Assembly: GCA_965208635.1 (NCBI GenBank)
Contig: OZ242349.1
Location: 3,852,272 to 3,916,271 of the forward strand
Direction of reading: 5' to 3'
Origin: Candidatus Poribacteria bacterium
GTDB lineage: Bacteria > Poribacteria > WGA-4E > WGA-3G
Length of the DNA: 64,000 nucleotides
This document shows positions 10,221-43,851 of this stretch, piece after piece. Every line of letters starts with the position of its first letter. The stretch's first letter is position 1. Below the pieces are notes generated by a model. It searched no databases, was not told the origin of the DNA, and was given only the letters and a program-made list of their open reading frames with translations. The position numbers and the translations under genes are program-made.

Positions 10221-10303
10221 GATTCACCGAAAACCTGCCCAAAAAGAAATGGAGGGGTTTTTGCTTGGACATTTCTTTGGTCCAGGAGGCCATAATTTAA
10301 AAT
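10221..10303 (+). repeat. repeat family B copy (degenerate) forming the leuS 5' leader and start context
   Basis: 'gattcaccgaaaacctgccc...aaatggaggggtttttgcttgg...ccaggaggccataatttaaaatATG' shares modules with the copies at 12925, 14473, 17448, 17614, 24621 and 30450. Confidence 0.6.
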
Positions 10304-12859
10304 ATGGAGAACCATCCTTACGCCCCGGCAGAAATAGAACCCTATTGGCAAGCCGAGTGGCAAAAAAAAGACGCATTTAAAATCCCAAACGATATTGAGA
10401 CACTCAAGACGAAGCCCAAATTTTATGTGCTTGGCATGTTTCCCTATACCTCTGGGGCCGGACTGCACGTCGGACACGCCAAGAACTATGTACCGTCCGA
10501 TGTATTTGCTAATTTTCGGAGGATGCAGGGGTATCACGTGATGCACCCAATGGGATGGGATGCTTTCGGACTCCCGACCGAACGAACGGCGGTGCGTGAA
10601 AACGAACACCCAGCACACATTACAAAACGGAATACCGAAACCTTTCAGCAACAGATGCAACGCATCGGCTTCTCTTACGACTGGTCCCGTAAAATTGATA
10701 CCTCTGTGCCCGAATATTATAGATGGACGCAGTGGATTTTCCTCCGACTCTATGAAAAAGGTTTGGCATATCTCGCTGACGTACCTGTCAACTGGTGTCC
10801 AGCGTTAGGCACTGTCCTCTCAAATGAAGAGGTAAAGGACGGAAAGTATGTTGAAACTGGCGATCCGGTTGAGCGCCGTCTGATGCGGCAATGGATGCTT
10901 AAAATTACTGCCTATGCCGACCGGCTGCTGGAAGACTTGGATTTATTGGACTGGCCCGATGGTCTCAAGGAGATGCAACGAAACTGGATCGGTAAATCGG
11001 AGGGGGCAGACATCACCTTCAAGATTAAGGATAGCGATAAGACGTTCACCGTTTTCACGACGCGTCCAGACACACTCTTCGGTGCAACCTATTGCGTACT
11101 TGCTCCTGAACATCCACTCGTCTCCGAGATAACACACCCTGGTGCGGCATCTGTTGTTAGTACCTATGTAAAAGAAGCCGTCAACAAATCCGATCTCCAA
11201 CGGACAGACCTTGCTACAGAAAAGACAGGCGTTTTCACGGGTGCCTATGCTATCAACCCGTGCAACAACGCTCCTATCCCGATCTGGGTTGCGGATTATG
11301 TCCTGATGACGTACGGCACGGGTGCCATCATGGCTGTTCCCGGACACGATGAACGCGACCATGAATTCGCTGTAGCTTTCGGTATTCCTATCGTTGAAGT
11401 CATCAAGGGCGGTGATCAGCCAATTGAAGAAGCACCTTTTGAAGGTGATGGTGTTTGCATCAACTCCGATTTTCTCAACGGTTTGCGTGTTGCTGAGGCG
11501 AAGGAGAAAATGATCGCTTGGCTTGAAGGCGAACAAAGGGGATCGCGCCAAGTCCAATATCGCTTGCGAGACTGGCTCTTCTCACGGCAACGCTATTGGG
11601 GTGAACCCTTCCCGCTTGCGCATCTTGACGACGGAACTATTGTTCAACTGCCAGACGCGGAATTGCCAGTTGAACTACCGCCTATTGATGCCTATAAGCC
11701 GACAGAGGATGGGCAGCCTCCCCTTGCTCGCGCCGGATCCGAATGGTTGGATGTGACGCTATCAGATGGGCGAGTAGGGACGCGAGAAACGAATATCATG
11801 CCGCAATGGGCAGGTTCCTGTTGGTATTACCTCCGTTTCCTTGATGCGCACAATACCGAGACACCTTTTGATCCTAAACTTGAACAATACTGGATGCCGG
11901 TTGATACCTACATGGGAGGGGCTGAGCACGCCGTTTTGCATCTGCTCTACGCACGTTTTTGGCATAAGGTGCTTTACGACTGTGGATTAGTCTCTACAAA
12001 AGAGCCGTTCCAAGGACTGCTCAACCAAGGGACGATCCTCGCGCAATCTTACCAAGATGCGAAAGGCAAATACTACTATCCGCACGAAGCCGAGGAGACA
12101 GATGGTAAATTCGTTGAGAAAGCCTCTGGGGTGCCTCTCCAAACGCAGATAGAGAAAATGTCCAAATCCCGCTTCAATGTTATCAACTCGGACGATGTCA
12201 TTGACAAATACGGTGCAGATTCCCTTCGCCTCTATCTACTCTTTATCGGTCCATTCACAGCCAGCACGCCATGGCAGGACGCGGGTGTAGAAGGCGTCTA
12301 TCGGTTCCTTCAACGCGTCTGGCGGCTTGTTATTGATGAAGACACCGGTGAACTCAGCGAGAAGCTAACCGATGCTGACGGCACAACCGACTCAGAACTC
12401 TGGCGCGAACTCCATAAAACCATCAAACAGGTAACGGAGGACACGGAGTCGATTGACAAGATGAATACGGCGATTAGCCAGATGATGATCTTCGTTAACA
12501 CCGCCACGCAGGCAAAAACACTACCGAAAGAGACGTTGAAGGTGTTCCTACATCTGCTATCGCCTTATGCGCCACATATCGCGCAGGAGTTGTGGCATCG
12601 TCTCGGTGAATCTGGGTTCATCGCACTTTCGCAATGGCCCACACACGATGAGACAGTGCTCACGACTGCTACTGTGACGATCATTGCGCAAGTCAACGGG
12701 AAACTCCGCAACAGGCTCCAACTTCCTGCTGATGCAACCGACAAAGAAATTGAGGAAGCCGCACTCGCAGATGAGCGGGTTCAGCGGTTCATTGAGGAAA
12801 AACCGATTCGGAAAGTGATCGTCGTCTCGAACCGTAATCTTATCAATATTGTTGTCTAA
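10304..12859 (+). CDS. leuS: leucine--tRNA ligase
   Basis: N-terminal 'PYAPAEIEPYWQAEWQ', class I HIGH-type motif 'GLHVGHAKNY', 'KMSKS' present. 851 aa. Confidence 0.95.
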   Translation: MENHPYAPAEIEPYWQAEWQKKDAFKIPNDIETLKTKPKFYVLGMFPYTSGAGLHVGHAKNYVPSDVFANFRRMQGYHVMHPMGWDAFGLPTERTAVRENEHPAHITKRNTETFQQQMQRIGFSYDWSRKIDTSVPEYYRWTQWIFLRLYEKGLAYLADVPVNWCPALGTVLSNEEVKDGKYVETGDPVERRLMRQWMLKITAYADRLLEDLDLLDWPDGLKEMQRNWIGKSEGADITFKIKDSDKTFTVFTTRPDTLFGATYCVLAPEHPLVSEITHPGAASVVSTYVKEAVNKSDLQRTDLATEKTGVFTGAYAINPCNNAPIPIWVADYVLMTYGTGAIMAVPGHDERDHEFAVAFGIPIVEVIKGGDQPIEEAPFEGDGVCINSDFLNGLRVAEAKEKMIAWLEGEQRGSRQVQYRLRDWLFSRQRYWGEPFPLAHLDDGTIVQLPDAELPVELPPIDAYKPTEDGQPPLARAGSEWLDVTLSDGRVGTRETNIMPQWAGSCWYYLRFLDAHNTETPFDPKLEQYWMPVDTYMGGAEHAVLHLLYARFWHKVLYDCGLVSTKEPFQGLLNQGTILAQSYQDAKGKYYYPHEAEETDGKFVEKASGVPLQTQIEKMSKSRFNVINSDDVIDKYGADSLRLYLLFIGPFTASTPWQDAGVEGVYRFLQRVWRLVIDEDTGELSEKLTDADGTTDSELWRELHKTIKQVTEDTESIDKMNTAISQMMIFVNTATQAKTLPKETLKVFLHLLSPYAPHIAQELWHRLGESGFIALSQWPTHDETVLTTATVTIIAQVNGKLRNRLQLPADATDKEIEEAALADERVQRFIEEKPIRKVIVVSNRNLINIVV

Positions 12860-12924
12860 TAGTTCTCAGTTAAAAGAGGATCCTAACGGTGCAAATTTCC
12901 AGTCGCTCTGGAATGCAGAAAACA

Positions 12925-12962
12925 CCATCGTGGAACAATGCCCAGGAGGCCCATAATTAAAA
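12925..12962 (+). repeat. repeat family B start-context module ahead of or overlapping the rnj start
   Basis: 'cccaggaggcccataattaaaaaaTTG' parallels the leuS context 'ccaggaggccataatttaaaatATG'. Confidence 0.5.
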
Positions 12963-14782
12963 AATTGGAATTTGAAGAAATCAAAGGAAACGTTTCGATT
13001 ATCCCATTGGGAGGTTTAGGTGAATTTGGGCTTAACATGATGGTATATGAAACCGAAAATGACATTATCGTCGTTGACACAGGTTTCATGCTACCGAATG
13101 CTGACATGCCCGGTGTCGATCTGATATTACCAGATATCCACTATCTGGTGGAACGACAAGAGAAAATTCGCGGGATCCTTCTAACCCACGGACATGAGGA
13201 TCATATTGGTGCCTTATTCTACGTGCTACGGCAGTTGAATGTGCCGGTCTATGGCACGCAACTCACGCTCGCGATTGCCAGCGGCAGATTGCGCGAATAC
13301 AATGTTCTCAGCAAGGCACAACTCAATACAATTGCTCCAGGCGATACAGTCGAATTGGGTGATTTTTCAGCCGAATTCATCCATGTTACACACAGCATTC
13401 CAGATACAGTGGCAATTGCGCTGCGCACACCGGCCGGTGTTATCGTCCATACAGGCGACTTCAAATTCGACATGACACCTGTTGATGGTAAGTTGAGCGA
13501 CATTCAGACGCTCGCGCGTTTGGGTTCAGAAGGTGTCCTTCTGCTCGTTTCCGACAGCACAAACGCAGAGCGACCCGGACAAACCCCTTCTGAGCGAAGC
13601 ATCTATGGAACGATAGACACTATATTTCAGAAAACGGAACAGAAATTGTTCCTTTGCACCTTTTCTTCGAGTCTACACCGTATCCAACAATTCATTGACT
13701 TGGCAAATATACACCGGCGACTTATCGCTGTCAGCGGTCGTTCTCTCCTCAACAATGTACGTACCGCTTCTGAACTCGGTTACCTCAATCTGAATCCGGA
13801 TTATCTCATTGATGCTCGCGATGCGTCCATGTTCAAACCGCATGAGGTGATGATTTTGAGCACCGGCAGTCAAGGTGAACCCCGCTCTGCCATGTCATTG
13901 ATGGCACTCGACAATCATCCGTTTCTGAAGGTAGAACAAGGTGATACCGTCGTTATCTCTGCAAGGATCATTCCCGGCAATGAGAAAGCGATTGGAAACG
14001 TTGTCAATCATTTGCTCAGACGCGGCGCGAAGATATATCATGAACGCAATGCAAATGTCCACGTATCAGGGCACGGATCAAGCGAAGACCTGAAGTTGAT
14101 GCTCAATCTCCTGAAACCTGAGTTTTTCATGCCGATGCACGGTGAATATCAAAATCTGATGCGGCATGCCGAACTCGCCGAGTCTGTCGGGATACCGAGT
14201 GACAACATTAAAGTCGCTGAAGATGGTGAGCTCATTCAACTTACTTCCGAGACGTGTGAGGTATTGGGACGCGAGGGACGTTCCGGCCGCGTCCTCGTCG
14301 ATGGCAAGCCAGAATTTGAGCTTGAAGATATCGTCCTACGCGACCGTATCCAACTCGCCGAAGACGGCATTCTCGTTCCAATCGTCATCTTGAACAGCGA
14401 TACAGGGGATGAGAATCCAGAGCCAACAGCCAACAGTCAGGAAGATCGCGGGCAGCAATTGGAGGTAACCGTAGCCCATAATGTAATGGAGGGCGGATCT
14501 ACGGAGGACGCCTTTCAAAATTCAGTTCACCTGAACGAACCGCAAGGAAAAATTAGAAAACAGATAGAAATTATTTCGCGTGGATTTGTCTATATGGATA
14601 AATCGGAAGAACTGATAGAGGAAGCAAAAGAAATTACCCTGCGCGTCATTGAGAATCTGAGCGATGAACAGAAACAGGAAACCGAGACCGTCCAAGACGA
14701 GATCCGAGGCGCGCTCCGCCGATTTTTCTCCAAACAGATGCAACGGACACCGCTCATCTTCCCAGTCGTCATGCGGGTTTGA
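12938..14782 (+). CDS. rnj: ribonuclease J (metallo-beta-lactamase/beta-CASP RNase)
   Basis: 'IIPLGGLGEFGLNMMVYE', 'HGHEDHIGA', beta-CASP and C-terminal domain. 614 aa, about 50 aa longer than usual because of a repeat-derived linker insertion. Alternative start TTG at 12963. Confidence 0.9.
   Translation: MPRRPIIKKLEFEEIKGNVSIIPLGGLGEFGLNMMVYETENDIIVVDTGFMLPNADMPGVDLILPDIHYLVERQEKIRGILLTHGHEDHIGALFYVLRQLNVPVYGTQLTLAIASGRLREYNVLSKAQLNTIAPGDTVELGDFSAEFIHVTHSIPDTVAIALRTPAGVIVHTGDFKFDMTPVDGKLSDIQTLARLGSEGVLLLVSDSTNAERPGQTPSERSIYGTIDTIFQKTEQKLFLCTFSSSLHRIQQFIDLANIHRRLIAVSGRSLLNNVRTASELGYLNLNPDYLIDARDASMFKPHEVMILSTGSQGEPRSAMSLMALDNHPFLKVEQGDTVVISARIIPGNEKAIGNVVNHLLRRGAKIYHERNANVHVSGHGSSEDLKLMLNLLKPEFFMPMHGEYQNLMRHAELAESVGIPSDNIKVAEDGELIQLTSETCEVLGREGRSGRVLVDGKPEFELEDIVLRDRIQLAEDGILVPIVILNSDTGDENPEPTANSQEDRGQQLEVTVAHNVMEGGSTEDAFQNSVHLNEPQGKIRKQIEIISRGFVYMDKSEELIEEAKEITLRVIENLSDEQKQETETVQDEIRGALRRFFSKQMQRTPLIFPVVMRV
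14473..14560 (+). repeat. repeat family B copy inserted in-frame in the rnj linker
   Basis: 'gcccataatgtaatggagggcggatctacggagg...ttcagttcacctgaacgaaccgcaaggaaaaatta' matches the terminal modules of the intergenic copy at 17448-17559. It encodes 'AHNVMEGGSTEDAFQNSVHLNEPQGKIRKQ'. Confidence 0.7.
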
Positions 14783-14811
14783 TAACTATAAAAAGAAAGG
14801 AATAGATTAAA

Positions 14812-15960
14812 TTGAAATTATTCACATGTATCCTGGCAATTGCCACTTTGATAATAGGTTTCTCCGCCTGTGAGCGAGCGTCACAAATTATCCAACCTAC
14901 TACATCCCAGACAGAGGATAAGGGCAATGAGATTGCCATCGGAGTCGTTTTACCTTTGACAGGACACTTGGCTTCTGCAGGCGAACTCATGAAACAGGGT
15001 CTTGACCTTGCCCTCGATGAAATTAACAACGCACAACCCAGTGGTCCAAAATTCAAGTTCATCGTTGAGGATGACACCAGTACCCCGGAGGGCGCGGTTG
15101 ACGCTTTCAACAAACTGATTCACCAATACGGCCTGTCTGTGATTCTCGGTCCCGCGTCTTCAACTGCGACCCAAGCGGCTTTCCCAATCGCACAAGAAAA
15201 CCAGGTCGTAGCAATTAGTCCCACAGCCGGTGCCCGCGATCTTGGCGCAATTGGAGAGTTCGTCTTTCGTGTCCCGCTCGCGTCAAATATCCTGGCACTT
15301 AAAGGTGTCGAAGCAACACATGCGAAACTCAGCTATCAACGGGTCGCTACTATCTATGACGAAACCGATCTCTTCTCGACAGATAGAGACGAGGCGTTGC
15401 AGGAAGCCTTCACCGCGATCGGTGTTGAGATCCTAACCACGGAAGTTTTCCAGAGCGGTGATACCGACTTCTCGACACAACTAACGCAGATAAAGGCATT
15501 GGATCCGGATGCTATTTTTGTCTCGTCCTTGCCCCCCGAAAAACCAGGGATACTGATTCAAGCGCACGAACTCGGTATATCCGTTCCTGTTATTATGAGT
15601 TCGCTAACCGGTGTTGAGGTAGAAGCCGCGGGTGTCGCCGCCGAAGGCGCAATAACCTTTATCGGTTGGCTCCCTACAGATGACACACCGGGAAATCAAG
15701 TTTTTGTAGCAAATTATAGCGAGACTTACGGCATGATCCCAAACGTCTTTGCCACAGCATCGTATGCCTCCGTCTATATTTTAGCAGAGGCGATTAAGAA
15801 TGCCGAGTCAACCAATGCAATCTCAATCCGAGGCGCACTTGCAAATATCAACGACTTTGACACGGTTTTCGGCAAGTTCTCTTTTAATGCCGACGGGGAC
15901 GCCGTTTATGAACAGAAGGCTCTGATAGTAAAAGACGGCACATTGCAACCCTTTGAGTAA
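14812..15960 (+). CDS. ABC transporter substrate-binding lipoprotein, branched-chain amino acid (LivK/LivJ-like, PBP type 1)
   Basis: Lipoprotein signal '...IIGFSAC'. 'IGVVLPLTGHLASAGELMKQGLDLALDEIN' is typical of Leu/Ile/Val-binding proteins. TTG start. Confidence 0.7.
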   Translation: MKLFTCILAIATLIIGFSACERASQIIQPTTSQTEDKGNEIAIGVVLPLTGHLASAGELMKQGLDLALDEINNAQPSGPKFKFIVEDDTSTPEGAVDAFNKLIHQYGLSVILGPASSTATQAAFPIAQENQVVAISPTAGARDLGAIGEFVFRVPLASNILALKGVEATHAKLSYQRVATIYDETDLFSTDRDEALQEAFTAIGVEILTTEVFQSGDTDFSTQLTQIKALDPDAIFVSSLPPEKPGILIQAHELGISVPVIMSSLTGVEVEAAGVAAEGAITFIGWLPTDDTPGNQVFVANYSETYGMIPNVFATASYASVYILAEAIKNAESTNAISIRGALANINDFDTVFGKFSFNADGDAVYEQKALIVKDGTLQPFE

Positions 15961-16028
15961 TTTTGTTCGATAGTTTCACGGCACATTTAGAAATTTCAGA
16001 TTTAATTTATTGAGAGAGTACAAGAAGT

Positions 16029-17432
16029 ATGAAAACACAAACAATGTATGAAAAGATATGGGAGGCGCATCTCGTTCGCGCCGCCGCAGGCGAGGTCCCA
16101 ATCCTCTATATCGACACGCACCTCGTCCACGAAGTTACATCTCCGCAGGCGTTTGAGGGGTTAAGGCTCAATAACCGAAAAGTCCGCCGTCCGGATCTGA
16201 CGTTCGCCACGATGGATCACAACGTCCCGACAACGGATAGGTCACTGCCCATCACCGATCTGATTGCCGCGAAGCAGATGGAAACACTCGCGCAAAACTG
16301 CACCGAGTTTGACATCCCGCTCTACGACATTGACAGCCCTGAGCAAGGCATCGTGCATGTCATCGGACCCGAACTCGGCATCACGTTGCCCGGTAAGACC
16401 CTTGTTTGTGGGGATAGCCACACCTCAACACACGGGGCACTCGGTGCCCTCGCTTTCGGCATCGGTACAAGCGAGATTGAGCATGTTCTCGCCACGCAAT
16501 GTCTCCTGCAACAGGAATCAGAAACCTTCGAGATTCGGATTGACGGCACGCTCCCTTACGGCGTAACCGCAAAAGACATTATCCTCTCTATTATCGGACA
16601 TATCGGTATTGATGGCGGGAACGGTGCTGTTGTTGAGTACACAGGCTCCGCTATTCGCGCCCTCAACATTGAGGAACGGATGACGGTTTGCAATATGTCC
16701 ATTGAGGCAGGAGCACGTGCCGGTATGATCGCTCCTGATGACACCACTTATGAGTACATCGCTGGCAGACGTTTCGCACCGAAAGATAAAAAGTTTGATG
16801 CCGCTGTTGAACGCTGGAAGCAGCTTCCCACTGATGACGGAGCGACCTATGATCGAACCTTGCAACTTGATGCCGCAGAAATCGCACCGCAGGTGACATG
16901 GGGCACAAATCCGGGTATGGTGACCGACGTAACAGGGCGCGTTCCAGATCCCACGGACATGGTAACAGTCGACGAAAAGACTGCTACCGAACACGCCTTG
17001 GAATATATGGATCTCACACCCGGCACACCCATCACAGATATTGCCGTAGATAGAGTTTTCATCGGCAGTTGCACCAACTCCCGTATCAGCGATCTACGAG
17101 TTGCTGCAGAAGTCGCAAAGGGCAGGAAAGTCGCAGACACTGTCAGTGCGATGGTCGTTCCCGGATCGCAGGCTGTTAAACGTCAAGCGGAGGCGGAAGG
17201 GCTCGACGAGATTTTCCGTGCCGCAGGCTTTGAGTGGCGTGAAGCCGGTTGTAGCATGTGCCTCGGTATGAATCCCGATATCCTGATGCCGGGTCAACGT
17301 TGCGCCAGCACATCGAACCGGAATTTTGAAGGCAGACAGGGCAAAGGCGGACGCACGCACTTAGTAAGTCCACAGATGGCGGCTGCAACTGCCGTAACGG
17401 GACACTTCGTGGATATCCGAACCTTCGGATAG
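16029..17432 (+). CDS. leuC: 3-isopropylmalate dehydratase large subunit
   Basis: '[10 protein letters not shown]', '[22 protein letters not shown]' and the aconitase-family Cys ligands 'GSCTNSR' and 'CSMCLGMN'. 467 aa. Confidence 0.95.
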
Positions 17433-17447
17433 GTTCTTGAGCAGTTT

Positions 17448-17559
17448 CAGCAGCCCGTAATGTAATGGAGGGGTTTTTGCTTCGGTGTTTCCTCTAGATA
17501 TACGAGAAGTCACACTAAGACTTCAGATTCACCTGACCGAACCGCAAGGTTTTTAATTT
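17448..17559 (+). repeat. repeat family B copy (full length, ~110 bp) in the leuC-leuD spacer
   Basis: 'gcccgtaatgtaatggaggggtttttgcttcgg...ttcagattcacctgaccgaaccgcaaggtttttaatttATG'. Confidence 0.75.
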
Positions 17560-17613
17560 ATGAGTTTATTAACGCTCCGCTTACGCTGTATTTTTTTTCA
17601 GGTTCCTAAATCG

Positions 17614-17702
17614 GCAGCCTGCAACACCGGCGCAGGCGGGTCTACGGAAAAGAAAGTGAAGCGATCAACCTACCTGACCGAACCGCAAGGAATAATTAAA
17701 AT
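17614..17702 (+). repeat. repeat family B copy (variant with gcctgcaacaNcggcgcaggcgg palindrome) abutting the leuD start
   Basis: 'cagcctgcaacaccggcgcaggcgggtctacgga...tacctgaccgaaccgcaaggaataattaaaatATG'. Confidence 0.75.
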
Positions 17703-18293
17703 ATGGAAGCATTCAAAGAACACGTGGGACGCGTTGTCCCACTCGACCGGATTAATGTTGACACCGACCAGATTATCCCAAAGCAATTTCTGAAACGGAT
17801 CGAACGAACCGGTTTCGGTGAATTTCTCTTTAACGACTGGCGCTACCTTGAGAGTGGCGATCCGAACCCGGAATTCGTACTGAATCTCCCACGCTACGCA
17901 GGGGCAAGTATCCTCATCGCAGGCGTGAATTTCGGATGTGGCAGCTCGCGCGAGCACGCCCCGTGGGCACTCCAACAATACGGCTTCAAAGCAATTCTCG
18001 CGCCCTCGTTTGCCGATATTTTCCGCAACAATTGCTACAAGAACGGCATTCTCCCGATTGCTCTGCCTGCAGATATTATTACTTCGCTCAGTCAAGAGAC
18101 ACACGCCACCGAGGGCTACCAATTGATGATAGACTTGGAGGAGCAATCGGTCATCTGTTCTGATGGCACCGCCCACACCTTTGAAATCGGTGATTTTGAG
18201 AAATACTGCCTGCTGAACGGACTTGACGAAATCGGCTGGACCTTGCAGTATGAAGCAGACATTGCGGCGTATGAAAATCAGCATGCTTCATAG
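17703..18293 (+). CDS. leuD: 3-isopropylmalate dehydratase small subunit
   Basis: '[20 protein letters not shown]' and '[17 protein letters not shown]' are LeuD signatures. 196 aa. Confidence 0.92.
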
Positions 18294-23182: not shown

Positions 23183-23895
23183 TGAAGGCGCGCTCTCATT
23201 CTCCGTATGACTGGCAAATGCCACCATGGGATGTATGGATACTCGTGGTGTTCCCAATGATACCCGAAGTGGTAACAAGTGATAAACGACCAGAGCGTTG
23301 AATAGGCATTACTCTGCGCGCGGTGAGGGTTATCATACCCACTTTCTGGTATTCGATGTGGTAGATAGGTCCCGAAATAGAACAGTTGCAACGTGCTAAG
23401 CAATGCTGGAGAAACCCAAAACAGGACAAGATTGACGGTGGAAATTGCTAAAATATACTCCATGATTTGAAATACAATCGCCATACCGACTATCTGCTTC
23501 CAACTCAAGTATTCTTTCATGAAATGGAAATACCACGCCAAGAAGCCCGTATGGTGTCCATCGTGAAAATCTGGATCTATATCGCTCGCGGGTGTTCGGT
23601 GGTGCTCCCAGTGTTTTTTTACTAATTTGCGGTATGAAAACAGGGCGTATAGTCTGACAGCGATTGCCCCAATGACATTGTTAATACGCGGATGCGTAGG
23701 ACAAACTGAACCGTGCATCGCATCATGTGCTGTGATAAACAGACCCGTATAGAGAAACGTCTGACAAAGCATGCCCAAAGGCACCACCGCAAGGTGGATG
23801 CGGCTCACATCAAGTGTGAGGAGCATTGAGAGACTCAATCCCCATAAACCGACAATCCCTAACGCAATGAATAAGCCTTTATTTCTTGATTTCAT
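23179..23895 (-). CDS. crtW: beta-carotene 4-ketolase (CrtW-type membrane di-iron enzyme)
   Basis: His boxes 'AHDAMHGS', 'HWEHH' and 'HHEYPYIPWWHLP', and 4 TM helices, as in CrtW ketolases. 238 aa. Confidence 0.65.
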   Translation of the reverse strand: MKSRNKGLFIALGIVGLWGLSLSMLLTLDVSRIHLAVVPLGMLCQTFLYTGLFITAHDAMHGSVCPTHPRINNVIGAIAVRLYALFSYRKLVKKHWEHHRTPASDIDPDFHDGHHTGFLAWYFHFMKEYLSWKQIVGMAIVFQIMEYILAISTVNLVLFWVSPALLSTLQLFYFGTYLPHRIPESGYDNPHRAQSNAYSTLWSFITCYHFGYHWEHHEYPYIPWWHLPVIRRMRARLQ

Positions 23896-24581
23896 AAGTT
23901 GCTTAGACTAACCAATCCAAAATATAGGAGTTGCGCAAAATAGCAGTGAAAAGCGATTCGCGGCAATTGTTGACGAAACAGGCCGACTTGAAAACCGATT
24001 GTCGCGAAGATGAAACTTAATCCAAACCACACCAGATAGTTCCGTAAAGGGATATGGTCGTTCATCCATGTCCAGTAATCCAGTTTCGCTGCCGCCGGTT
24101 CCATAAGCAGATCGAAGCAGACCATTAACAAAGCCACCAGAAATGCTATTTTGAAACGGAAACCTTCTGCTAAAAATTTCGGGATAATCTTCTGAGCAAC
24201 AGCAGTCGAGGCAACGAGCATCACAAACCAAGCAGACCCAATACTGATTGGAACACCACCAATCGATGGTCGCAAGGTCTGTCCATACGAGTATGAACCG
24301 AAAATCTCACCTGTCCGAACACCGAGCCATTCAATCCCAAAACTGACGACAACGATCCCTATACTTGCGATGGCAAACTTCGATCGTTCATGTTGTGGAG
24401 ACTCCCACCAGCATTCCCAAAATAGCCATACGCCCAAACCAATCATGATTGGCGAAGCGAGAACTTGCATGACTTCTTGGAACACACCGAGCACATGCCA
24501 CAAGCCACCCGCGCCTAAAAGTAGATAAAGCGCCCCTATTTTAAGTTTCTTAATTTTGCCTTGTCGTTCGGTTAGGTCCAT
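23892..24581 (-). CDS. polytopic membrane protein, candidate carotenoid 1',2'-hydratase (CruF-like)
   Basis: 229-aa integral membrane protein inside the crt operon, ATGA-coupled to crtW. The assignment is contextual, by analogy with salinixanthin/myxol clusters. Confidence 0.35.
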   Translation of the reverse strand: MDLTERQGKIKKLKIGALYLLLGAGGLWHVLGVFQEVMQVLASPIMIGLGVWLFWECWWESPQHERSKFAIASIGIVVVSFGIEWLGVRTGEIFGSYSYGQTLRPSIGGVPISIGSAWFVMLVASTAVAQKIIPKFLAEGFRFKIAFLVALLMVCFDLLMEPAAAKLDYWTWMNDHIPLRNYLVWFGLSFIFATIGFQVGLFRQQLPRIAFHCYFAQLLYFGLVSLSNL

Positions 24582-24620
24582 TGGGTAAATAACGTCTTAA
24601 CTGAAAACAAAAAACGCCTA

Positions 24621-24710
24621 AGCGCGTAGCCTGCAACAACGGCGCAGGCGGATCTACGGAGAGGCATCTGAAATTACCAATCCCTCTCATCGAACCGCAA
24701 GGTATAATTA
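24621..24710. repeat. repeat family B copy between the GT2 stop and the CruF-like start, inside the operon
   Basis: 'aagcgcgtagcctgcaacaacggcgcaggcggatctacggag...catcgaaccgcaaggtataattaaa' overlaps the GT2 stop codon (24708-24710). Confidence 0.75.
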
Positions 24711-25814
24711 AAGAATCTGTCGTCCCTTCCACTGCAGACGACCGCGTCTGACTTGGTAAAATGAATTAACACCAATCAGCAAAGTCAATAAAACGCCAAA
24801 GGGATGTAAAATTACGCTTGTAACGAAGGGGTGCCTATATTTGAGTGCCAGCACCATCCGCATAACGATGTTCATAACGATAGCAACGATTGCCAATCCT
24901 CTAAGCGTCGCAAACCAGACAGTAATGTACGGTAGCACACACATTGTAAACAGACCGAGCATTAAAATAAAAAACGGTATCATTTTGTAGCGGACCAATC
25001 CAAAAAGGTTTTTGGAAAATCCGTTCCAGACCTCGCTGAACGAATGATACATCCGGCAAGATACCACACACGTTCCCGCCGATGTCAAGATTTTGATACC
25101 TCTCTTTTTCGCCAATCGGCTGAGTTCAACGTCTTCAACAATCTGATTTGATACCGCTTGATGCCCACCGACCCGTTGGTATGCCTCGCGAGTAAAGGCA
25201 ATCCAGAGACCGCTCGCCGCCGCAAGCGACGGGAAACGACTAAAGTAGGTAAGCCATAACGGAAGTCCGGCATAAACGAACAGGTCCACTACCGGAACGA
25301 CGAGTTTTTCTGCCAAGGTGCCAGTCACTTTCTCTGGAAACGCCGAGAGCAAGCCGAGTTCCAACTTCTGCATGTAAGCAACAGTGTTTGCAATCGCGTT
25401 CGGGGCAGGACGGTTATCCGCATCCGTGAAAATGAGTATTTCTCCATCTGCGTGTTGGCTCAGTTGGTGGCACGCCCAGTTTTTTCCAGTCCAGCCTGCT
25501 GGCAACGGTTTACCTTGAATCGCCTGAACTGCAGGATACTGTTCGCCGAATTTTTCAATAATCGTACCCGTGCGATCCGTCGATTGGTCATTGAGAACGT
25601 GAATTTCAAAGTTATCGTAGTTTTGAGACAGGAATCCGTTGATACAGGCACCGATGTTAGTTTCTTCATTACGCGCCGGGATCAGCACCGAGACGCGTGG
25701 ATAGTTCTGGAGACCAACGAATTTCTTCAGCATCGGCGCAGTCACAGTATTAAACAGCGCGACTGCTAAAATAACCGCCAACAGAACTATCGAAATAAGC
25801 ATCAGGATAAACAA
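24708..25814 (-). CDS. family-2 glycosyltransferase (CruC-like carotenoid glycosyltransferase candidate)
   Basis: 'VSVLIPARNEETNIGACINGFLSQNYDNFEIHVLNDQSTDRT' GT2 DxD region, with C-terminal TM helices. 368 aa. Confidence 0.65.
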   Translation of the reverse strand: MFILMLISIVLLAVILAVALFNTVTAPMLKKFVGLQNYPRVSVLIPARNEETNIGACINGFLSQNYDNFEIHVLNDQSTDRTGTIIEKFGEQYPAVQAIQGKPLPAGWTGKNWACHQLSQHADGEILIFTDADNRPAPNAIANTVAYMQKLELGLLSAFPEKVTGTLAEKLVVPVVDLFVYAGLPLWLTYFSRFPSLAAASGLWIAFTREAYQRVGGHQAVSNQIVEDVELSRLAKKRGIKILTSAGTCVVSCRMYHSFSEVWNGFSKNLFGLVRYKMIPFFILMLGLFTMCVLPYITVWFATLRGLAIVAIVMNIVMRMVLALKYRHPFVTSVILHPFGVLLTLLIGVNSFYQVRRGRLQWKGRQIL

Positions 25815-30449: not shown

Positions 30450-30545
30450 ATTTTTAATTGTTCCTGAAGACTCGCGCAATTCCTTACAGGCTACGCGCTT
30501 TAGTTTACCCAAGACAGCAGCCTGCAACATCGGCGCAGGGTTTTT
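30450..30545 (-). repeat. repeat family B copy (minus orientation) supplying the crtD-like start context
   Basis: 'cagcctgcaacatcggcgcagggtttttgcaatgtaat...' is followed on the minus strand by 'ggaacaattaaaaaATG'. 'ggctacgcgctt' is the inverse of 24620-24631. Confidence 0.6.
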
Positions 30546-39576: not shown

Positions 39577-42500
39577 TCACCTCAAAATATCCTCGGGTCC
39601 ATGGGATTCTGTGAAGGTTGTCCAGATACCTGTGCGTTTATCGTAACGGCTCAATCCACGATAGGTTCCGAACCAGACGAACGGACTATCTACAGCCATC
39701 GAAAGGATACCGTTATGTGCTAAGCCGTCCTCTCGGGTGTAAGTCGTCCAACTATTCGTCAACTGATCAAACCGACTGACCCCAGCATTGTAGGTGCCAA
39801 TCCAGACTTCAGTGCCATCAACACCTATAGAGGTAACTTTGTTGCTGGCAAGTCCATCTGCTGTCGTATAGTCAGCCCAAACCTCTGTCTTTTCGTTGTA
39901 GAGTGTCACACCGCGGTCGCTGCCAAACCAGACATTGTCGCCAGCAATCACGATACAACTCACTTCATCACTCGCAAGTCCATCTTCCACTGTTATCGTC
40001 TTCCAGATATCCCGACCGATGTCATATTGACTGACACCCCTGCGTGTCCCGACCCAGACGTGTTTCTTACTTGCCGTGATACACCAAATTTGATCGGTAA
40101 CCAACGATTCAGCAAACTCTTTAGACACAGCAGAAGGCTGGATTTCAGTGCCCGATGTGTAGGTAATCCATGCATTGCGATCATCCGCTGTGCGGGGGTA
40201 CTTTCCGATCCCAGAATTAGTGCCAACCCAGATACTATCGGCATCGCTACTCACAGAAGTTATATTGTTGGCGGGCAGTCCATGCTCAGTTTTGTACTGA
40301 TCCCACCGCAGGGCTATCTTATCAAAGCGATTCGCCCCGTCGCGTGTCCCAACCCAGACGTATTGGTCATCGACCATAATAGAACTCACAACGTCATCGG
40401 AGAGGCAGTCTTTCTTTTTCCGTCTATGTCGGTGCCAGTGCCCTCCATGGGTTTCTATGTTTTCGGAGCCACCTTCCTGCCGATAATTCTTCCATGTCCC
40501 CAGGATCTTGTCGTAGCGTGACATACCTTTATCCGTACCGACCCAGACGAAACGCTCATCTGTATCTACCGTCCGAATAGTGCGTCCAACGAGGGTCGGT
40601 AGTGCCGTCAACGGGGTCCAAGATTCTTTCTGTTTGTCATAACGGGAAAGTCCACGCAACGTACCCACCCATACATAGTCCTCATCCACTGCGAGCCCAT
40701 ACTCACCCACATGGTTATGGAGCAGCCCTTTGATATCTCTAAACCTTGCCCAAGTCCCAGAGGCAAAATGAAAGCGTCGAAGCCCATCGTTGGGGGCAGC
40801 TAACCACAGATAATCGTCATCGGCTGCCAGCTCAAGCGTTCCACGTCCGGATCTGATCGTCGTCCATTCCTTTGTGCGCCTGTCGTATCGGGTAACACCT
40901 GCATCCTCCCAAGGTCTGTAGAGTATCCATACATCTTTTTCTGTAGCGATAATACGTCTAATCGTCCTTGAAGCCAGCACGTCATTCGTCGAAAATGTCG
41001 TCCATTTCTTTGTCTTTTTATCGTATCGCGACAACGGACGGTTGCTATCTCTATCCCATTCCGAGCGCGCAACCCAGATGAAATCATCATCTACAGTAAT
41101 CCACTCCGCGCCTCTGCCTGCCAATCCGTCTCTCGGTCCAAAATCTTTCCATTCACCCGTGATTTCATTGTACTGAGTCAGGGTCCGCCCGGATCCAAAC
41201 CAGACGTTCGGTCCATCGACCCCAAGTGCATTCAATCGCTCAATCTGAGTCCCTTCATCAGGAGCGACCACATCCCATGTCCCAGTCGCTTTACTATAAT
41301 GGCTCAATTCCAAACCTATCATCGGGATGACCCAAACACTCTGTTCACTCACAGCAATCTTGTCTACATCGTTTGTAGAAAGACCATCCTCTGTCGTAAA
41401 ATGTTGCCATGTATCCGAAGTTTTATCGTAACGGAGAACCCCATAGTCCGTTGTGAACCAGACTGCATCCGTGTCAATATGCGTCCAACGGATAAGTGTC
41501 ATGGCTCTTTTCTGCGTAGACTGCAGAATGTCTACGCGCGTGAAACGCCGCCATGTCTCTGTTGAACGATGAAACCGGACAAGAGCACCGTTCGGCGAAG
41601 CCCCCCAGCTATTGAGCCAGATGTAATCCCCATCAAACTTGATGTTTGAGACCAATGTTTCAAGGAACGGCTCCCGTACCGGCCGAGATTGATGTAGAAC
41701 CTCTCTTCCATTTTGTGAGTCATATTCGACGAGTCCTGTATCTGTCGCCAACCAAAGTGTTCCGTCTGCATCACACAGAATGTCGCGAATGTTATACGGC
41801 ACATTTGAGAGAGAATTCCAAGAATCAGAAGCAATCGTGTAACTTCCCAGTCCCTGTGGTGTGCCGATCCAGAGAATCCCATCTTGAAAGGCAAGTGCGG
41901 TGACATTCGGCGACGGCAATTGGTCATTAAAGGACAGTGGGACCCAACGCTGACGGGTCTTGTCATATCTTGCAAGACCGCGGCGTGTTCCCGCCCAAAG
42001 TGTCTGTTCTCGGGGATCGGTTTGTAACTCTGAATCAGTGGAAAGTAGCACATTAACGTACGGATTCGGAAGACCATCGGCAACACGGTGCATCTGCTTA
42101 TCGACGATTGCGTATTGCAAAACACCTTCCGCGCCGCCAAACCAGACTTTCTCATCGTGAGCAAGCACGGCTAATATAAGCGGATTTTTCGGCGTGTCCG
42201 GTGGTGTCAGTTGTGTCCATTCCTGCGCTGTTGTATCGTACACGGCAGGACCGAAACTTGTACCAACCCAGACCCGGTGATTCTGTGATGCAGTGCCAGT
42301 ATCAACTGATGTCACAAAAGCTTCGCCTTGTGTCTGTGTTCGAGGTGGGACATGAAATGTCCACTCTTCCTCTAAATATGCTCGCGTGCCAAGCCCTCGA
42401 TCGCTCCCAATCCAGACCTGGGCATCGCCATTGTTTAGGATTTCGTCAGTGGTGTCCTGTTCCGATTCAGAAGGTTGAGACGTAAAATTGATTGACGTAA

Positions 42501-43851
42501 TATAGGGAGTCGGCAGCCCATCTTCCTTGGAAATGATTTCCCAGTTACGTGTTTGAGGAGAGTAAACCGAAATTCCGGCAACTGTTGCTAACCAAAGGTT
42601 TCCATCGGGATCACGTGTTAGATAGCGAACATCGTTATCGGCGAGAAAATCGGCTTGTTTATATATTGTCCACTCGCCGCTCACTTTATCAAATCGGCTC
42701 ACACCATCCTCTTTGCTCGCAAACCAGACATCATTACCTTGTGTGGTAATCCAACTGATATGATTACTCGCCAATCCATCTGCCTTGGTATAATGCACCC
42801 ATGTGTTGACAGGCTTAATGAATCGATGGACACCCGCATTGGCAGTTCCGAACCAGACCTGGAACCCATCTGCACGAATACAGGAGATAATATTGCTTTT
42901 CAACAGATCTGTTTTCGTATATGTTTTGATGAACGTCTGGTCAACTTGATTGTACTGACTGACACCCTCCTTCTGCGTGCCAAACCAAACACTATCGTCG
43001 TCCACCGCAATCGTAGCGATTTCGCTGTCTATCAAACCATCTGATTTCGTATAGTTATTCCAAGAATCGGTGTCTCGATGGTAACGACTTACCCCACCTC
43101 TGCTGAACCTCGGATCTTCATCCCATCCATGTGGATCTGGGTTTATTTCTCTACCGGTGCCGACCCAAACATACTCCGGCTCAACGGCGATGGTTGTAAT
43201 TACTTTGCTGACTAAGCCGTCCTTCCGGGTACGCACCGCCCAACTGTCAATCGTTTTATCGTAACGATTCAATCCCTCGGATGTCCCAAACCACACGTAG
43301 TTCCCGTCCACCGCAATTGAGGAAACTTGGTCACTTGCTAATCCATCGATGGTTCGGAAGGTCGTAAAAGTGTTTGTTTGCATATCGTAGCGGCTTACAC
43401 CTTCATCCGTGGCAAACCAGACCCATTGCCCATCAACCGCGACGGCATTCACCATATCGTTCGACAACCCATCTTCCATCGTATAATGGATCCATTTATC
43501 CTGCTGGCGGTCCCAGCGAGAAACACCCCGCGCCGTTGCAATCCATACATTGTCTAAATCTGCTGCAATACAATTGACCTCGTTGCTGACGAGCGTTCGT
43601 TCTATGGGCCACGCCTTCGCAAGCTCCGTGCCTGTTTTGGAGCCATCATGAGGAAGACCAGATTGTGGATCGCTGGTTACCAATGGACCGCACCCGACAA
43701 TCATAAAGAAGGGCAGCAGTAAGGTACATGCTATTGAAGCAACGCACAAAGGTTGGCATTTGAATTCAGCAATCCAAGACTTACTTCTATCTGCTCGCTT
43801 CATTGTTTCCACCGTTTCCCTTTCACCCAAGTGTGAATCTCGCAATCTCAA
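39577..43851 (-). CDS. giant lipoprotein made of ~25 two-component-regulator-propeller (Y_Y_Y/Reg_prop) repeats, with no kinase or output domain
   Basis: Lipobox 'MIVGCG'. Reiterated 'VW(I/F)GT..G(L/V)SRYD..T..W' blades throughout. Lys/His-rich insert 'HGGHWHRHRRKKKD'. 1424 aa. Confidence 0.6.
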   Translation of the reverse strand: MRLRDSHLGERETVETMKRADRSKSWIAEFKCQPLCVASIACTLLLPFFMIVGCGPLVTSDPQSGLPHDGSKTGTELAKAWPIERTLVSNEVNCIAADLDNVWIATARGVSRWDRQQDKWIHYTMEDGLSNDMVNAVAVDGQWVWFATDEGVSRYDMQTNTFTTFRTIDGLASDQVSSIAVDGNYVWFGTSEGLNRYDKTIDSWAVRTRKDGLVSKVITTIAVEPEYVWVGTGREINPDPHGWDEDPRFSRGGVSRYHRDTDSWNNYTKSDGLIDSEIATIAVDDDSVWFGTQKEGVSQYNQVDQTFIKTYTKTDLLKSNIISCIRADGFQVWFGTANAGVHRFIKPVNTWVHYTKADGLASNHISWITTQGNDVWFASKEDGVSRFDKVSGEWTIYKQADFLADNDVRYLTRDPDGNLWLATVAGISVYSPQTRNWEIISKEDGLPTPYITSINFTSQPSESEQDTTDEILNNGDAQVWIGSDRGLGTRAYLEEEWTFHVPPRTQTQGEAFVTSVDTGTASQNHRVWVGTSFGPAVYDTTAQEWTQLTPPDTPKNPLILAVLAHDEKVWFGGAEGVLQYAIVDKQMHRVADGLPNPYVNVLLSTDSELQTDPREQTLWAGTRRGLARYDKTRQRWVPLSFNDQLPSPNVTALAFQDGILWIGTPQGLGSYTIASDSWNSLSNVPYNIRDILCDADGTLWLATDTGLVEYDSQNGREVLHQSRPVREPFLETLVSNIKFDGDYIWLNSWGASPNGALVRFHRSTETWRRFTRVDILQSTQKRAMTLIRWTHIDTDAVWFTTDYGVLRYDKTSDTWQHFTTEDGLSTNDVDKIAVSEQSVWVIPMIGLELSHYSKATGTWDVVAPDEGTQIERLNALGVDGPNVWFGSGRTLTQYNEITGEWKDFGPRDGLAGRGAEWITVDDDFIWVARSEWDRDSNRPLSRYDKKTKKWTTFSTNDVLASRTIRRIIATEKDVWILYRPWEDAGVTRYDRRTKEWTTIRSGRGTLELAADDDYLWLAAPNDGLRRFHFASGTWARFRDIKGLLHNHVGEYGLAVDEDYVWVGTLRGLSRYDKQKESWTPLTALPTLVGRTIRTVDTDERFVWVGTDKGMSRYDKILGTWKNYRQEGGSENIETHGGHWHRHRRKKKDCLSDDVVSSIMVDDQYVWVGTRDGANRFDKIALRWDQYKTEHGLPANNITSVSSDADSIWVGTNSGIGKYPRTADDRNAWITYTSGTEIQPSAVSKEFAESLVTDQIWCITASKKHVWVGTRRGVSQYDIGRDIWKTITVEDGLASDEVSCIVIAGDNVWFGSDRGVTLYNEKTEVWADYTTADGLASNKVTSIGVDGTEVWIGTYNAGVSRFDQLTNSWTTYTREDGLAHNGILSMAVDSPFVWFGTYRGLSRYDKRTGIWTTFTESHGPEDILR

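Follow-up and report, generated by a model that had tools for sequence, protein, structure and literature searches.

A unit of a dispersed Poribacteria repeat family lies in frame within the RNase J gene

We identified a full-length unit of a short dispersed repeat of sponge-associated Poribacteria inside the coding sequence of the RNase J gene (rnj), where it is translated in frame as residues 512-541 of the 614-aa protein, as the sequence-only reading of this DNA had claimed. The window, that is the whole stretch analysed here, comprises 64,000 nt of a Candidatus Poribacteria bacterium genome (contig OZ242349.1, positions 3,852,272 to 3,916,271). The best explanation, which we consider probable, is that a repeat unit was captured in the rnj coding sequence and then persisted as a largely unconstrained passenger peptide. 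The added peptide is most likely a tolerated passenger with little sign of any function, and we infer that it is functionally neutral. Events of this kind are already known from other bacteria, as with the Rickettsia palindromic elements, and the rnj case is a new instance. It extends beyond the classic Rickettsia case the finding that small intergenic repeats can become coding sequence, here in a central RNA-decay enzyme, and it indicates where in a protein such DNA can be accommodated: in RNase J, a hairpin loop of the C-terminal domain that was hypervariable already. The repeat family itself is probably a more interesting object than the rnj copy.

The rnj copy and its place in the protein

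The host gene encodes a complete RNase J. The product matched the Pfam families RNase_J_b_CASP (3.7e-41), RNase_J_C (1e-24), Lactamase_B (2e-16) and RMMBL (1.4e-10), all above cut-offs, and aligned with the RNase J1 structure 3zq4 at E=1e-133. It has the metallo-beta-lactamase core with an inserted beta-CASP domain, the RMMBL motif and the C-terminal domain, and an end-to-end alignment with canonical enzymes (B. subtilis J1, 3zq4; T. thermophilus, 3bk1; D. radiodurans, 4xwt) found all catalytic and structural domains present. The earlier observation that the ORF is long, 614 aa against about 555 aa, holds, as B. subtilis RNase J1 (555 aa) aligned to residues 19-488 and 538-614 and left about 49 residues unmatched. 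Where the solved RNase J structures have a turn of 2-6 residues, the Poribacteria protein has 53 extra residues (489-541), of which 30 are repeat-derived and the other 23 (489-511) form a loop without similarity to the element. The ORF reads ...VAHNVMEGGSTEDAFQNSVHLNEPQGKIRKQ... in frame, and the reading frame and the C-terminal domain downstream are intact in the PDB and Pfam alignments.

The repeat was searched for with a profile HMM built from 41 intergenic copies from other Poribacteria genomes. In rnj, the nhmmer match at 14471-14557 covered model positions 2-88 of 89 without a gap (E=1.5e-17, 59.6 bits), far beyond chance and comparable in strength to the two intact intergenic copies of the window at 17614-17700 and 24626-24712 (66.0 and 62.1 bits). 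This confirmed the segment 14473-14560 as a bona fide family-B repeat, with bounds that had been off by 2-3 nt: the element begins with GTAGCCC at 14471, its last codon (AAA) ends at 14560, and the whole copy spans 90 nt. Each of its two terminal modules matches the intergenic copy that had been placed at 17448-17559, with 95% identity between 14473-14493 and 17452-17472 and again between 14526-14547 and 17528-17549, and the middle segment GGCGGATCTACGGAG is identical to that of the intergenic copy at 24617-24712. Copies of the family normally lie between genes, and in half of those sampled an ATG follows the box by 10-13 nt; the rnj copy lies inside the coding sequence, and no ATG, GTG or TTG follows its AAGG at the canonical spacing. 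The features of the window are collected in Table 1.

Table 1. Repeat copies and related features of the window
Feature	Position	Strand	Evidence
rnj gene (RNase J), 614 aa including loop and element	12938..14782	+	ORF listing, Pfam, PDB 3zq4
Left part of the Poribacteria-specific loop, residues 489-511, TGDENPEPTANSQEDRGQQLEVT, not element-derived	14402..14470	+	unmatched in PDB alignments; hypervariable among orthologues
Full-length short-form repeat element, 30 in-frame codons, residues 512-541, VAHNVMEGGSTEDAFQNSVHLNEPQGKIRK	14471..14560	+	nhmmer E=1.5e-17
Head module: GTAG, then hairpin with stem GCCC (14474-14477) paired with GGGC (14491-14494)	14471..14496	+	family covariation
Tail box ACCTGAACGAACCGCAAGG, Shine-Dalgarno-like AAGG at its end	14529..14547	+	exact match to family search pattern
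A-rich element spacer (AAAAATTAGAAAA), followed by CAG ATA GAA where intergenic copies have ATG	14548..14560	+	sequence
Long-form intergenic copy (head, GTTTTTGCTT module, tail) in the leuC-leuD spacer; comparison copy of the sequence-only reading	17450..17550	+	nhmmer E=8.5e-12
Short-form intergenic copy, ending 2 nt before the leuD start codon (17703)	17614..17700	+	nhmmer E=1.5e-19; ORF 17703..18293
Partial tail copy overlapping the predicted start of a carotenoid-synthesis-like ORF (Pfam Caroten_synth), translation MDLTERQGKIKK...	24550..24596	-	nhmmer E=1.8e-5
Short-form intergenic copy	24626..24712	+	nhmmer E=2.4e-18
Isolated head module, then T-run	30517..30539	+	nhmmer E=0.11

The insert had been placed in the linker between the beta-CASP and C-terminal domains, and this position had to be revised. 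The PDB alignments break off at query residues 485-488 and restart at 538-543, and Pfam RNase_J_C matched in two stretches, of which the best aligned profile positions 18-102 with residues 530-614. The D. radiodurans enzyme has its C-terminal domain at residues 478-559, after the linker helix alpha13; in that species the domain mediates dimerisation and is essential (PMC4477667). Query residue 486 corresponds to about position 487 of the D. radiodurans chain. These alignments and domain limits place the insert about 10 residues into the C-terminal domain, within its first beta-hairpin. At this site, all 120 close Poribacteria orthologues carry a hypervariable loop of 25-60 aa; in other phyla, and in Poribacteria sequences of 75% identity, a short hairpin is all that is present. 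The loop exists without the element in 99 of the 120, so the element accounts for 30 of the extra residues but not for the loop as a whole, and to judge from these sequences the hypervariable loop pre-dates the element. An AlphaFold model of the whole protein, built with 40 close homologues, had a mean pLDDT of 47, too poor to show the loop as exposed or disordered.

The dispersed family

The family unit of about 89 nt consists of a head with GTAG and a hairpin, a variable middle, a conserved box, ACCTGACCGAACCGCAAGG, with a Shine-Dalgarno-like AAGG at its end, and an A-rich spacer. Most heads read (G/A)TAGCC(T/C)G..., and the family is mosaic: copies are long or short, and an additional GTTTTTGCTTGGG module occurs in either orientation. 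The tail box, present four times in the window, served as a scan pattern and turned up at least 115 stretches from at least 38 Poribacteria genome isolates. Among the matches listed, all 113 titles that name a taxon are Poribacteria (37 isolates), and 5 stretches come from one 'uncultured bacterium' MAG. The GCAAGG box is followed 10-13 nt on by an ATG in 62 of 121 intergenic copies, and this tie of AAGG to start sites in half of the copies suggests that the family provides expression signals or regulates them. Of 127 copies sampled, none lay inside a gene with coding sequence on both sides. Analysis of ORFs spanning the 127 copies gave three open frames, all apparently spurious N-terminal extensions or non-coding DNA. 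Sense frame 0 was open in 22 of 37 intergenic copies, and the other two sense frames in 4 and 7.

Covariation supports a predicted hairpin in the head of the unit and there only. Two base pairs of the head helix show CG<->UA covariation, with a score that none of 500 shuffles attained, and RNAalifold predicted the same helix. Folding of single copies gave z values from 0 to -1.6, with energies not clearly better than those of shuffles.

The phylum-wide family brought to light here had no counterpart in the resources searched. Rfam gave no match in the whole window at gathering thresholds and nothing meaningful at E<=10 on 14380-14640 or 17380-17760, Poribacteria motifs included. Full-text literature searches on Poribacteria repeats did not find the family described, and a scan of 14300-17800 for promoter and terminator consensus gave no decisive match. 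A protein search with a tandem 61-aa element peptide returned 20 tiny ORFs without domains; it missed the known RNase J positives and is therefore weak for large proteins. Of practical relevance for annotation, gene callers predict tiny spurious ORFs in copies of the family and use other copies to extend real genes at the N-terminus.

Origin, decay and constraint of the rnj copy

Alignment of orthologues showed that the insert is lineage-specific: the element is present in 22 of 121 close Poribacteria orthologues, with a patchy distribution and in-frame deletion derivatives. Nine orthologous rnj copies compared as DNA have the same junctions, and 8 of the 9 agree in the middle segment, which is variable in the family at large; shared junctions and middle point to a single origin in one event. 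In the P0015 group, a 27-nt in-frame deletion between two TGGAGG repeats removed the head hairpin, and P0025 carries a larger in-frame deletion in the element; the gene was kept in both. Moreover, the closest relative outside the loop, P0020 (96.2% identical), is without the element, and the patchiness is also seen in P0031 and P0035, which nest among element-bearing alleles. One gain alone is thus insufficient, and losses, replacements or recombination are also needed. Among the orthologues, no empty site with clean junctions was found, as element-free alleles carry other loop sequence there (...KTGLNAG), so that insertion and replacement look alike.

Based on these patterns, we propose that one unit of the Poribacteria-wide repeat joined the rnj coding sequence in the ancestor of one sponge-associated Poribacteria group. 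It would have landed in the pre-existing hypervariable surface loop at the first beta-hairpin of the C-terminal domain and replaced the distal end of that loop, and transposition, illegitimate recombination and homologous recombination are candidate routes of arrival. The gene stayed intact because the copy is 90 nt long and entered in the frame that is most often stop-free of the element's six. The 30 encoded residues would since have diverged, and in-frame deletions would have trimmed them in some lineages.

The substitution pattern of the element differs from that of the core of the protein. Identity at codon positions 1/2/3 was 0.94/0.81/0.86 in the element versus 0.95/0.98/0.76 in the core, and the values for the left loop part were near equal (0.83/0.85/0.76), with the third position at the gene background. 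The element substitutions are without protein-type codon periodicity. At the peptide level, identity among full-length alleles was 76% for the element, 71% for the left loop part and 96% for the core, and the best-conserved element peptide was the tail HL(T/N)EPQGKIKK (83% identity). Constraint on the element peptide at the protein level appears weak.

One feature of this pattern is not predicted by a purely neutral passenger. Third codon positions of the element are more conserved than those of the rest of the gene (0.862 versus 0.763, resampling P=0.005) while second positions are relaxed, which could mean a role at the nucleotide level. The rnj copy might be kept, for example, as an internal Shine-Dalgarno-like pause or standby site in rnj mRNA or, in an alternative form, as a recognition site common to the 5'-UTR copies that couples rnj expression to a factor reading the element. 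In line with this, GAA CCG CAA GG is invariant in 9 of 9 orthologues, three synonymous sites included, and the box is highly conserved phylum-wide and tied to start codons. However, we regard such a role, in either form, as unlikely. Conservation of the rnj copy does not follow the columns conserved in the family (Spearman rho 0.02), a result that also left gene conversion or a family-type constraint on the rnj copy unsupported. The head hairpin was lost in the P0015 group, and more was lost in P0025, with the gene retained; a start codon at the canonical distance after AAGG is missing; most close orthologues do without the element; and the excess was measured on 31 codons in 9 partly related sequences.

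Exaptation of the encoded peptide, whereby the C-terminal domain would gain a new property from the 30 residues, such as partner binding or altered dimerisation, is in our view improbable. The in-frame copy persists in at least 22 alleles from many samples, the tail peptide is comparatively well conserved, and the domain it sits in is the one that mediates dimerisation in D. radiodurans. Yet the element shows much lower conservation at second codon positions than the core does, the element peptide is about as variable as the left loop part, parts of it have been deleted in several lineages, and the closest relatives lack it altogether.

Slightly less probable still, we think, is a reading in which the repeat is a functional, dispersing 'leader cassette' that Poribacteria put ahead of many genes, composed of the hairpin, a near-constant 19-nt box and the Shine-Dalgarno-like site. 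The rnj copy would then be under nucleotide constraint because whatever recognises the copies in 5' UTRs also acts on the rnj mRNA; candidates are RNase J itself, a 5'-end-dependent nuclease, or a ribosome-associated factor. In that case, the RNA-decay enzyme would be coupled by feedback to the set of element-bearing genes.

It is very unlikely that the whole Poribacteria loop is one ancient decayed element, which the group of the window kept best or refreshed by gene conversion. By eye, element-free loops (..AENLLSEG..TETDSHSKTGLN..) are somewhat like the element peptide (..AHNVMEGGSTENDSQISTHLT..). However, the element profile had no match at E<=10 in three element-free orthologous genes, and shuffle tests against 88 distinct element-free loops gave a median p of about 0.5-0.87, with cases of p<0.05 not above chance. 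With no profile match and flat shuffle tests, the idea was rejected, and the resemblance of the loops is compositional.

Finally, repeats can cause mis-joins, and the window comes from a metagenome-type genome. An artefact, whether a chimeric assembly, which the sequence-only reading had wished to see checked, or a chance resemblance, is for practical purposes refuted, since an independent Logan short-read assembly (L116) carries the element too (99.46% identity over 4460 nt, gap-free, with an identical 614-aa protein), orthologous copies occur in eight other genomes, including chromosome-scale assemblies of other species, and the intact frame and the strength of the profile match speak against it. 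Capture of a repeat unit, followed by passive carriage of its peptide, remains our preferred reading.

Comparison with known repeat classes

The REP signature is GTAG followed by a palindrome. The head of the Poribacteria family has this form, a 5' GTAG and then an imperfect palindrome with a covarying stem that would form a hairpin, and like REP and BIME sequences the family is extragenic, multi-copy and mosaic. Unlike the Poribacteria family, REPs lack a conserved tail of 60 nt with a Shine-Dalgarno-like site. Doublets of the REPIN kind are rare, with 2 close inverted head pairs among 91 heads. RAYT-like (Y1) genes exist in Poribacteria. The two seen (L123 and L079) have other GTAG-palindromes on their flanks, and the head of this family flanked no RAYT gene in the roughly 1 Mb of DNA sampled.

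The sequence-only reading had called the element MITE-like. Similar to the bacterial MITEs Correia, ERIC and BOX, the family is short, non-coding and non-autonomous, occurs in many copies mostly just upstream of genes, and could supply expression signals. Nevertheless, it is not a canonical MITE, and its head is more REP-like. Terminal inverted repeats were not found when the first 30 nt were compared with the reverse complement of the last 30 (equalled in 1388 of 2000 shuffles for the consensus and 511 of 2000 for the rnj copy), the flanks of the rnj copy (...GAGGTAACC / CAGATAGAA...) have no common direct repeat of 2-9 nt as a target-site duplication, and no parent IS was identified. Promoters or ORFs can be part of bacterial MITEs, which at times form in-frame fusions with genes, and intragenic in-frame copies of ERIC and BOX are known (PMC10969869).

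Rickettsia palindromic elements (RPEs) are about 150 bp long and are usually in-frame insertions, with 44 in R. conorii genes (Ogata et al. 2000, as summarised in PMC10969869). Compared by this description, they differ from the Poribacteria family in phylum and in context: in-frame insertion is the usual state of RPEs and recurs in many unrelated genes, whereas the Poribacteria family typically lies immediately upstream of start codons and had none of its 127 sampled copies within genes, so that the rnj copy is an exception. By the same description, that copy resembles RPEs. Both are short dispersed repeats without coding capacity of their own that lie in frame in a housekeeping gene, and both add a tolerated peptide segment through a frame that is open in the orientation used.

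The repeat copy within the RNase J gene

Solved RNase J structures matched the rnj product at E=1e-133 in a PDB comparison, and its 120 closest database proteins were 82-91% identical to it; all those with a source name were 'Candidatus Poribacteria' RNase J. The sequence-only reading had proposed that a copy of a dispersed repeat (hereafter the element) is read in frame within rnj, with both terminal modules like those of a leuC-leuD spacer copy. We built an element profile of 89 model positions from 41 intergenic copies of other genomes, which matched 14471-14557 gap-free over model positions 2-88 (E=1.5e-17). The match equals in strength those of two intact intergenic copies in the window (17614-17700, 24626-24712) and confirms the in-frame copy. 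Both of its ends were indeed 95% identical to the leuC-leuD copy (17452-17472 and 17528-17549), and its middle, GGCGGATCTACGGAG, exactly matched the copy at 24617-24712. The 90-nt rnj copy is exactly 30 codons, encoding residues 512-541 (peptide VAHNVMEGGSTEDAFQNSVHLNEPQGKIRK).

Coordinates of the features (window unless another locus is named; L-numbers are loci from other assemblies)
Feature	Location	Strand	Description
Hairpin region	10236-10303		Head-like hairpin and T-run (GCCCAAAAAGAAATGGAGGGGTTTTTGCTTGG), AT-rich Shine-Dalgarno region, just 5' of leuS start (10304)
rnj ORF	12938..14782	+	614 aa; all RNase J domains (Pfam)
rnj element copy	14471-14560	+	GTAGCCCATAATGTAATGGAGGGCGGATCTACGGAGGACGCCTTTCAAAATTCAGTTCACCTGAACGAACCGCAAGGAAAAATTAGAAAA
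leuC-leuD spacer	17433-17702		Two element copies
Spacer copy	17614-17700		Ends 2 nt before leuD start
Membrane protein ORF	23892..24581	-	Carotenoid-synthesis-like (Pfam PF04240)
Partial tail copy	24550-24596	-	Overlaps predicted start of ORF 23892..24581
Periodic direct repeats	39600-43450, 50600-52600		In long ORF regions; spacings multiples of 126 nt
DUF2281 + PIN pair	L121 9784-10382; L122 11464-11818; L124 11071-11668		Toxin-antitoxin-like; same leuC-leuD spacer in three relatives
RAYT-like Y1 transposase genes	L123 8214-8683; L079 2558-3030		HUH motif MPDHIHTVI; ...NPVR.G...

The copy is not a product of chimeric assembly at the repeat. The region was also assembled independently from short reads (Logan, SRR24412594, locus L116); this assembly aligned to 10332-14791 with 24 mismatches and 0 gaps (99.46% identity) and encodes an identical 614-aa RNase J. 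The same in-frame element occurred in orthologous rnj of eight other assemblies, several at chromosome scale.

The host loop and the history of the copy

The insert had been placed in a linker between the beta-CASP core and the C-terminal domain, which the alignments do not bear out. B. subtilis RNase J1 aligned to query 19-488 and 538-614, T. thermophilus RNase J to 18-485 and 543-612, and Pfam RNase_J_C matched in two stretches, the best covering residues 530-614 (profile positions 18-102). For D. radiodurans RNase J, residues 478-559 make up the C-terminal domain, after linker helix alpha13 (PMC4477667), and query 486 falls near residue 487 in the alignment to that chain. Therefore, the extra residues lie inside the C-terminal domain, and they are located in the turn between its first (GILVPIVIL) and second (IEIISRGFVY) strands. 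An AlphaFold model from close homologues (mean pLDDT 47) was too poor to inform placement.

A low-complexity loop of variable length (25-60 aa) occupied this site in all 120 close orthologues, while the element-coded ...GGSTE..HL(T/N)EPQGK... segment was found in only 22 sequences of that set, window included; element-free loops end in ...KTGLNAGQ. The element thus contributes 30 of the 53 extra residues, the remainder (489-511) being unrelated loop sequence, and the loop predates the element. Poribacteria RNase J at ~75% identity (L126-L128) carry a short hairpin only (HSDGGAIATEPEIISRGF), as do those of other phyla, and most matches to 150 representatives of other lineages were split in two, the leading segment stopping at query 479-502. 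The insert is lineage-specific. Decay of an ancestral element as the source of all long loops was rejected by a profile search of element-free orthologues and shuffle tests on loops.

The nine orthologous DNA copies have common junctions, and eight share the middle segment, which is variable in the element family, favouring a single origin of the rnj copy. In-frame deletion derivatives were found in two lineages: a 27-nt deletion between two TGGAGG repeats took out the head in the P0015 group of database proteins, and P0025 lost more. The distribution among close orthologues was patchy. With the loop excluded, the window protein was 96.2% identical to P0020, whose loop is entirely different, 94.0% to P0003, 92.0-92.9% to the other twelve full-length element alleles and 91.7-92.8% to the seven deletion derivatives, and P0031 and P0035 lack the element yet are nested among carriers. 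Therefore, losses, replacements or recombination between co-resident lineages are needed beyond a single gain.

Mean pairwise identity among the nine copies at first, second and third codon positions was 0.95, 0.98 and 0.76 in the gene core, 0.83, 0.85 and 0.76 in the non-element loop part, and 0.94, 0.81 and 0.86 in the element. Element second positions were far less constrained than the core (0 of 20,000 resamples as low), and its peptide varied as much as the remainder of the loop (76% identity versus 71% in the left part and 96% in the core), indicating little selection on the element peptide. At third positions the element was more conserved than elsewhere in the gene (P=0.005), an excess that did not track family-conserved columns (rho 0.02) and is the sole sign of a possible role at the nucleotide level. 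On inspection, no start codon followed AAGG at the usual spacing in the rnj copy, so internal translation restart is unlikely. That the insertion was viable fits its length of 90 nt and the frame used in rnj, the most often stop-free of six (22 of 37 intergenic copies; the remaining sense frames, 4 and 7). Altogether, a dispersed intergenic repeat has genuinely been captured in frame in rnj within a restricted lineage; the copy is most likely a passenger in a loop that tolerates almost anything.

The repeat family in Poribacteria

A pattern scan found the 19-nt tail box in at least 115 stretches. Among the matches listed, all 113 taxon-naming titles were Poribacteria (37 isolates), the other five stretches came from one MAG titled 'uncultured bacterium' (at least 38 isolates in all), and twelve stretches came from one 5.5-Mb chromosome; some genomes with the box have an element-free RNase J. 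The short form consists of a (G/A)TAG-plus-hairpin head, CGGATMTACGGARAGG followed by ~20 variable bases, the tail box ACCTGACCGAACCGCAAGG and a spacer WAWAATTAAAAA. The head helix showed compensatory CG<->UA changes at two pairs, a score reached in 0 of 500 shuffles. Long forms carry an additional GTTTTTGCTTGGG... module downstream of the hairpin, which resembles a terminator; the module is inverted inside the head loop in some copies (L031, L036, L029). An ATG lay 10-13 nt past the box in 62 of 121 copies, which therefore puts AAGG at the position expected of a ribosome-binding site. Of 127 sampled copies, none was embedded in a gene and flanked by coding sequence at both ends. The family had no Rfam match, and no published description was found in the literature.

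Tandem arrays of 2-3 units (elements or tails alone, 30-150 nt apart) occurred at L009, L023, L068, L079, L090 and L097, most with an ATG after the last unit. At least 20 domain-less 'hypothetical proteins' of 39-96 aa in public gene calls (P0271-P0290) are translations of the element, a recurrent annotation artefact in Poribacteria genomes. In the window, the hairpin region before leuS is a degenerate long-form relative of the element. The first 12 codons from the ATG at 24581 (MDLTERQGKIKK) use the element frame seen in rnj; the overlap there represents either a second stretch of coding sequence derived from the element or a wrongly called start. The 126-nt-multiple repeats, one family of which encodes T(T/S)DGGKTW-like motifs (BNR/sialidase-type by eye), are ordinary repeat proteins unrelated to the rnj element.

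Relation to known repeats

The element lacks terminal inverted repeats and its rnj copy a target duplication; it is therefore not a canonical MITE, and the earlier MITE-like label is not supported. REP elements are recognized by GTAG followed by a palindrome, and the element resembles them in its GTAG-plus-hairpin head. RAYT-like genes are present in Poribacteria, and the two found (that of L123 frameshifted) are flanked by GTAG-palindromes other than the element's, GTAGGTGCG...CGCACC at L123 and GTAGGAGCGAGC...GCTCGC at L079, so several REP/RAYT systems coexist in Poribacteria. This instance and the repeat family appear undescribed; the type of event is known from RPEs and intragenic ERIC and BOX copies (PMC10969869).
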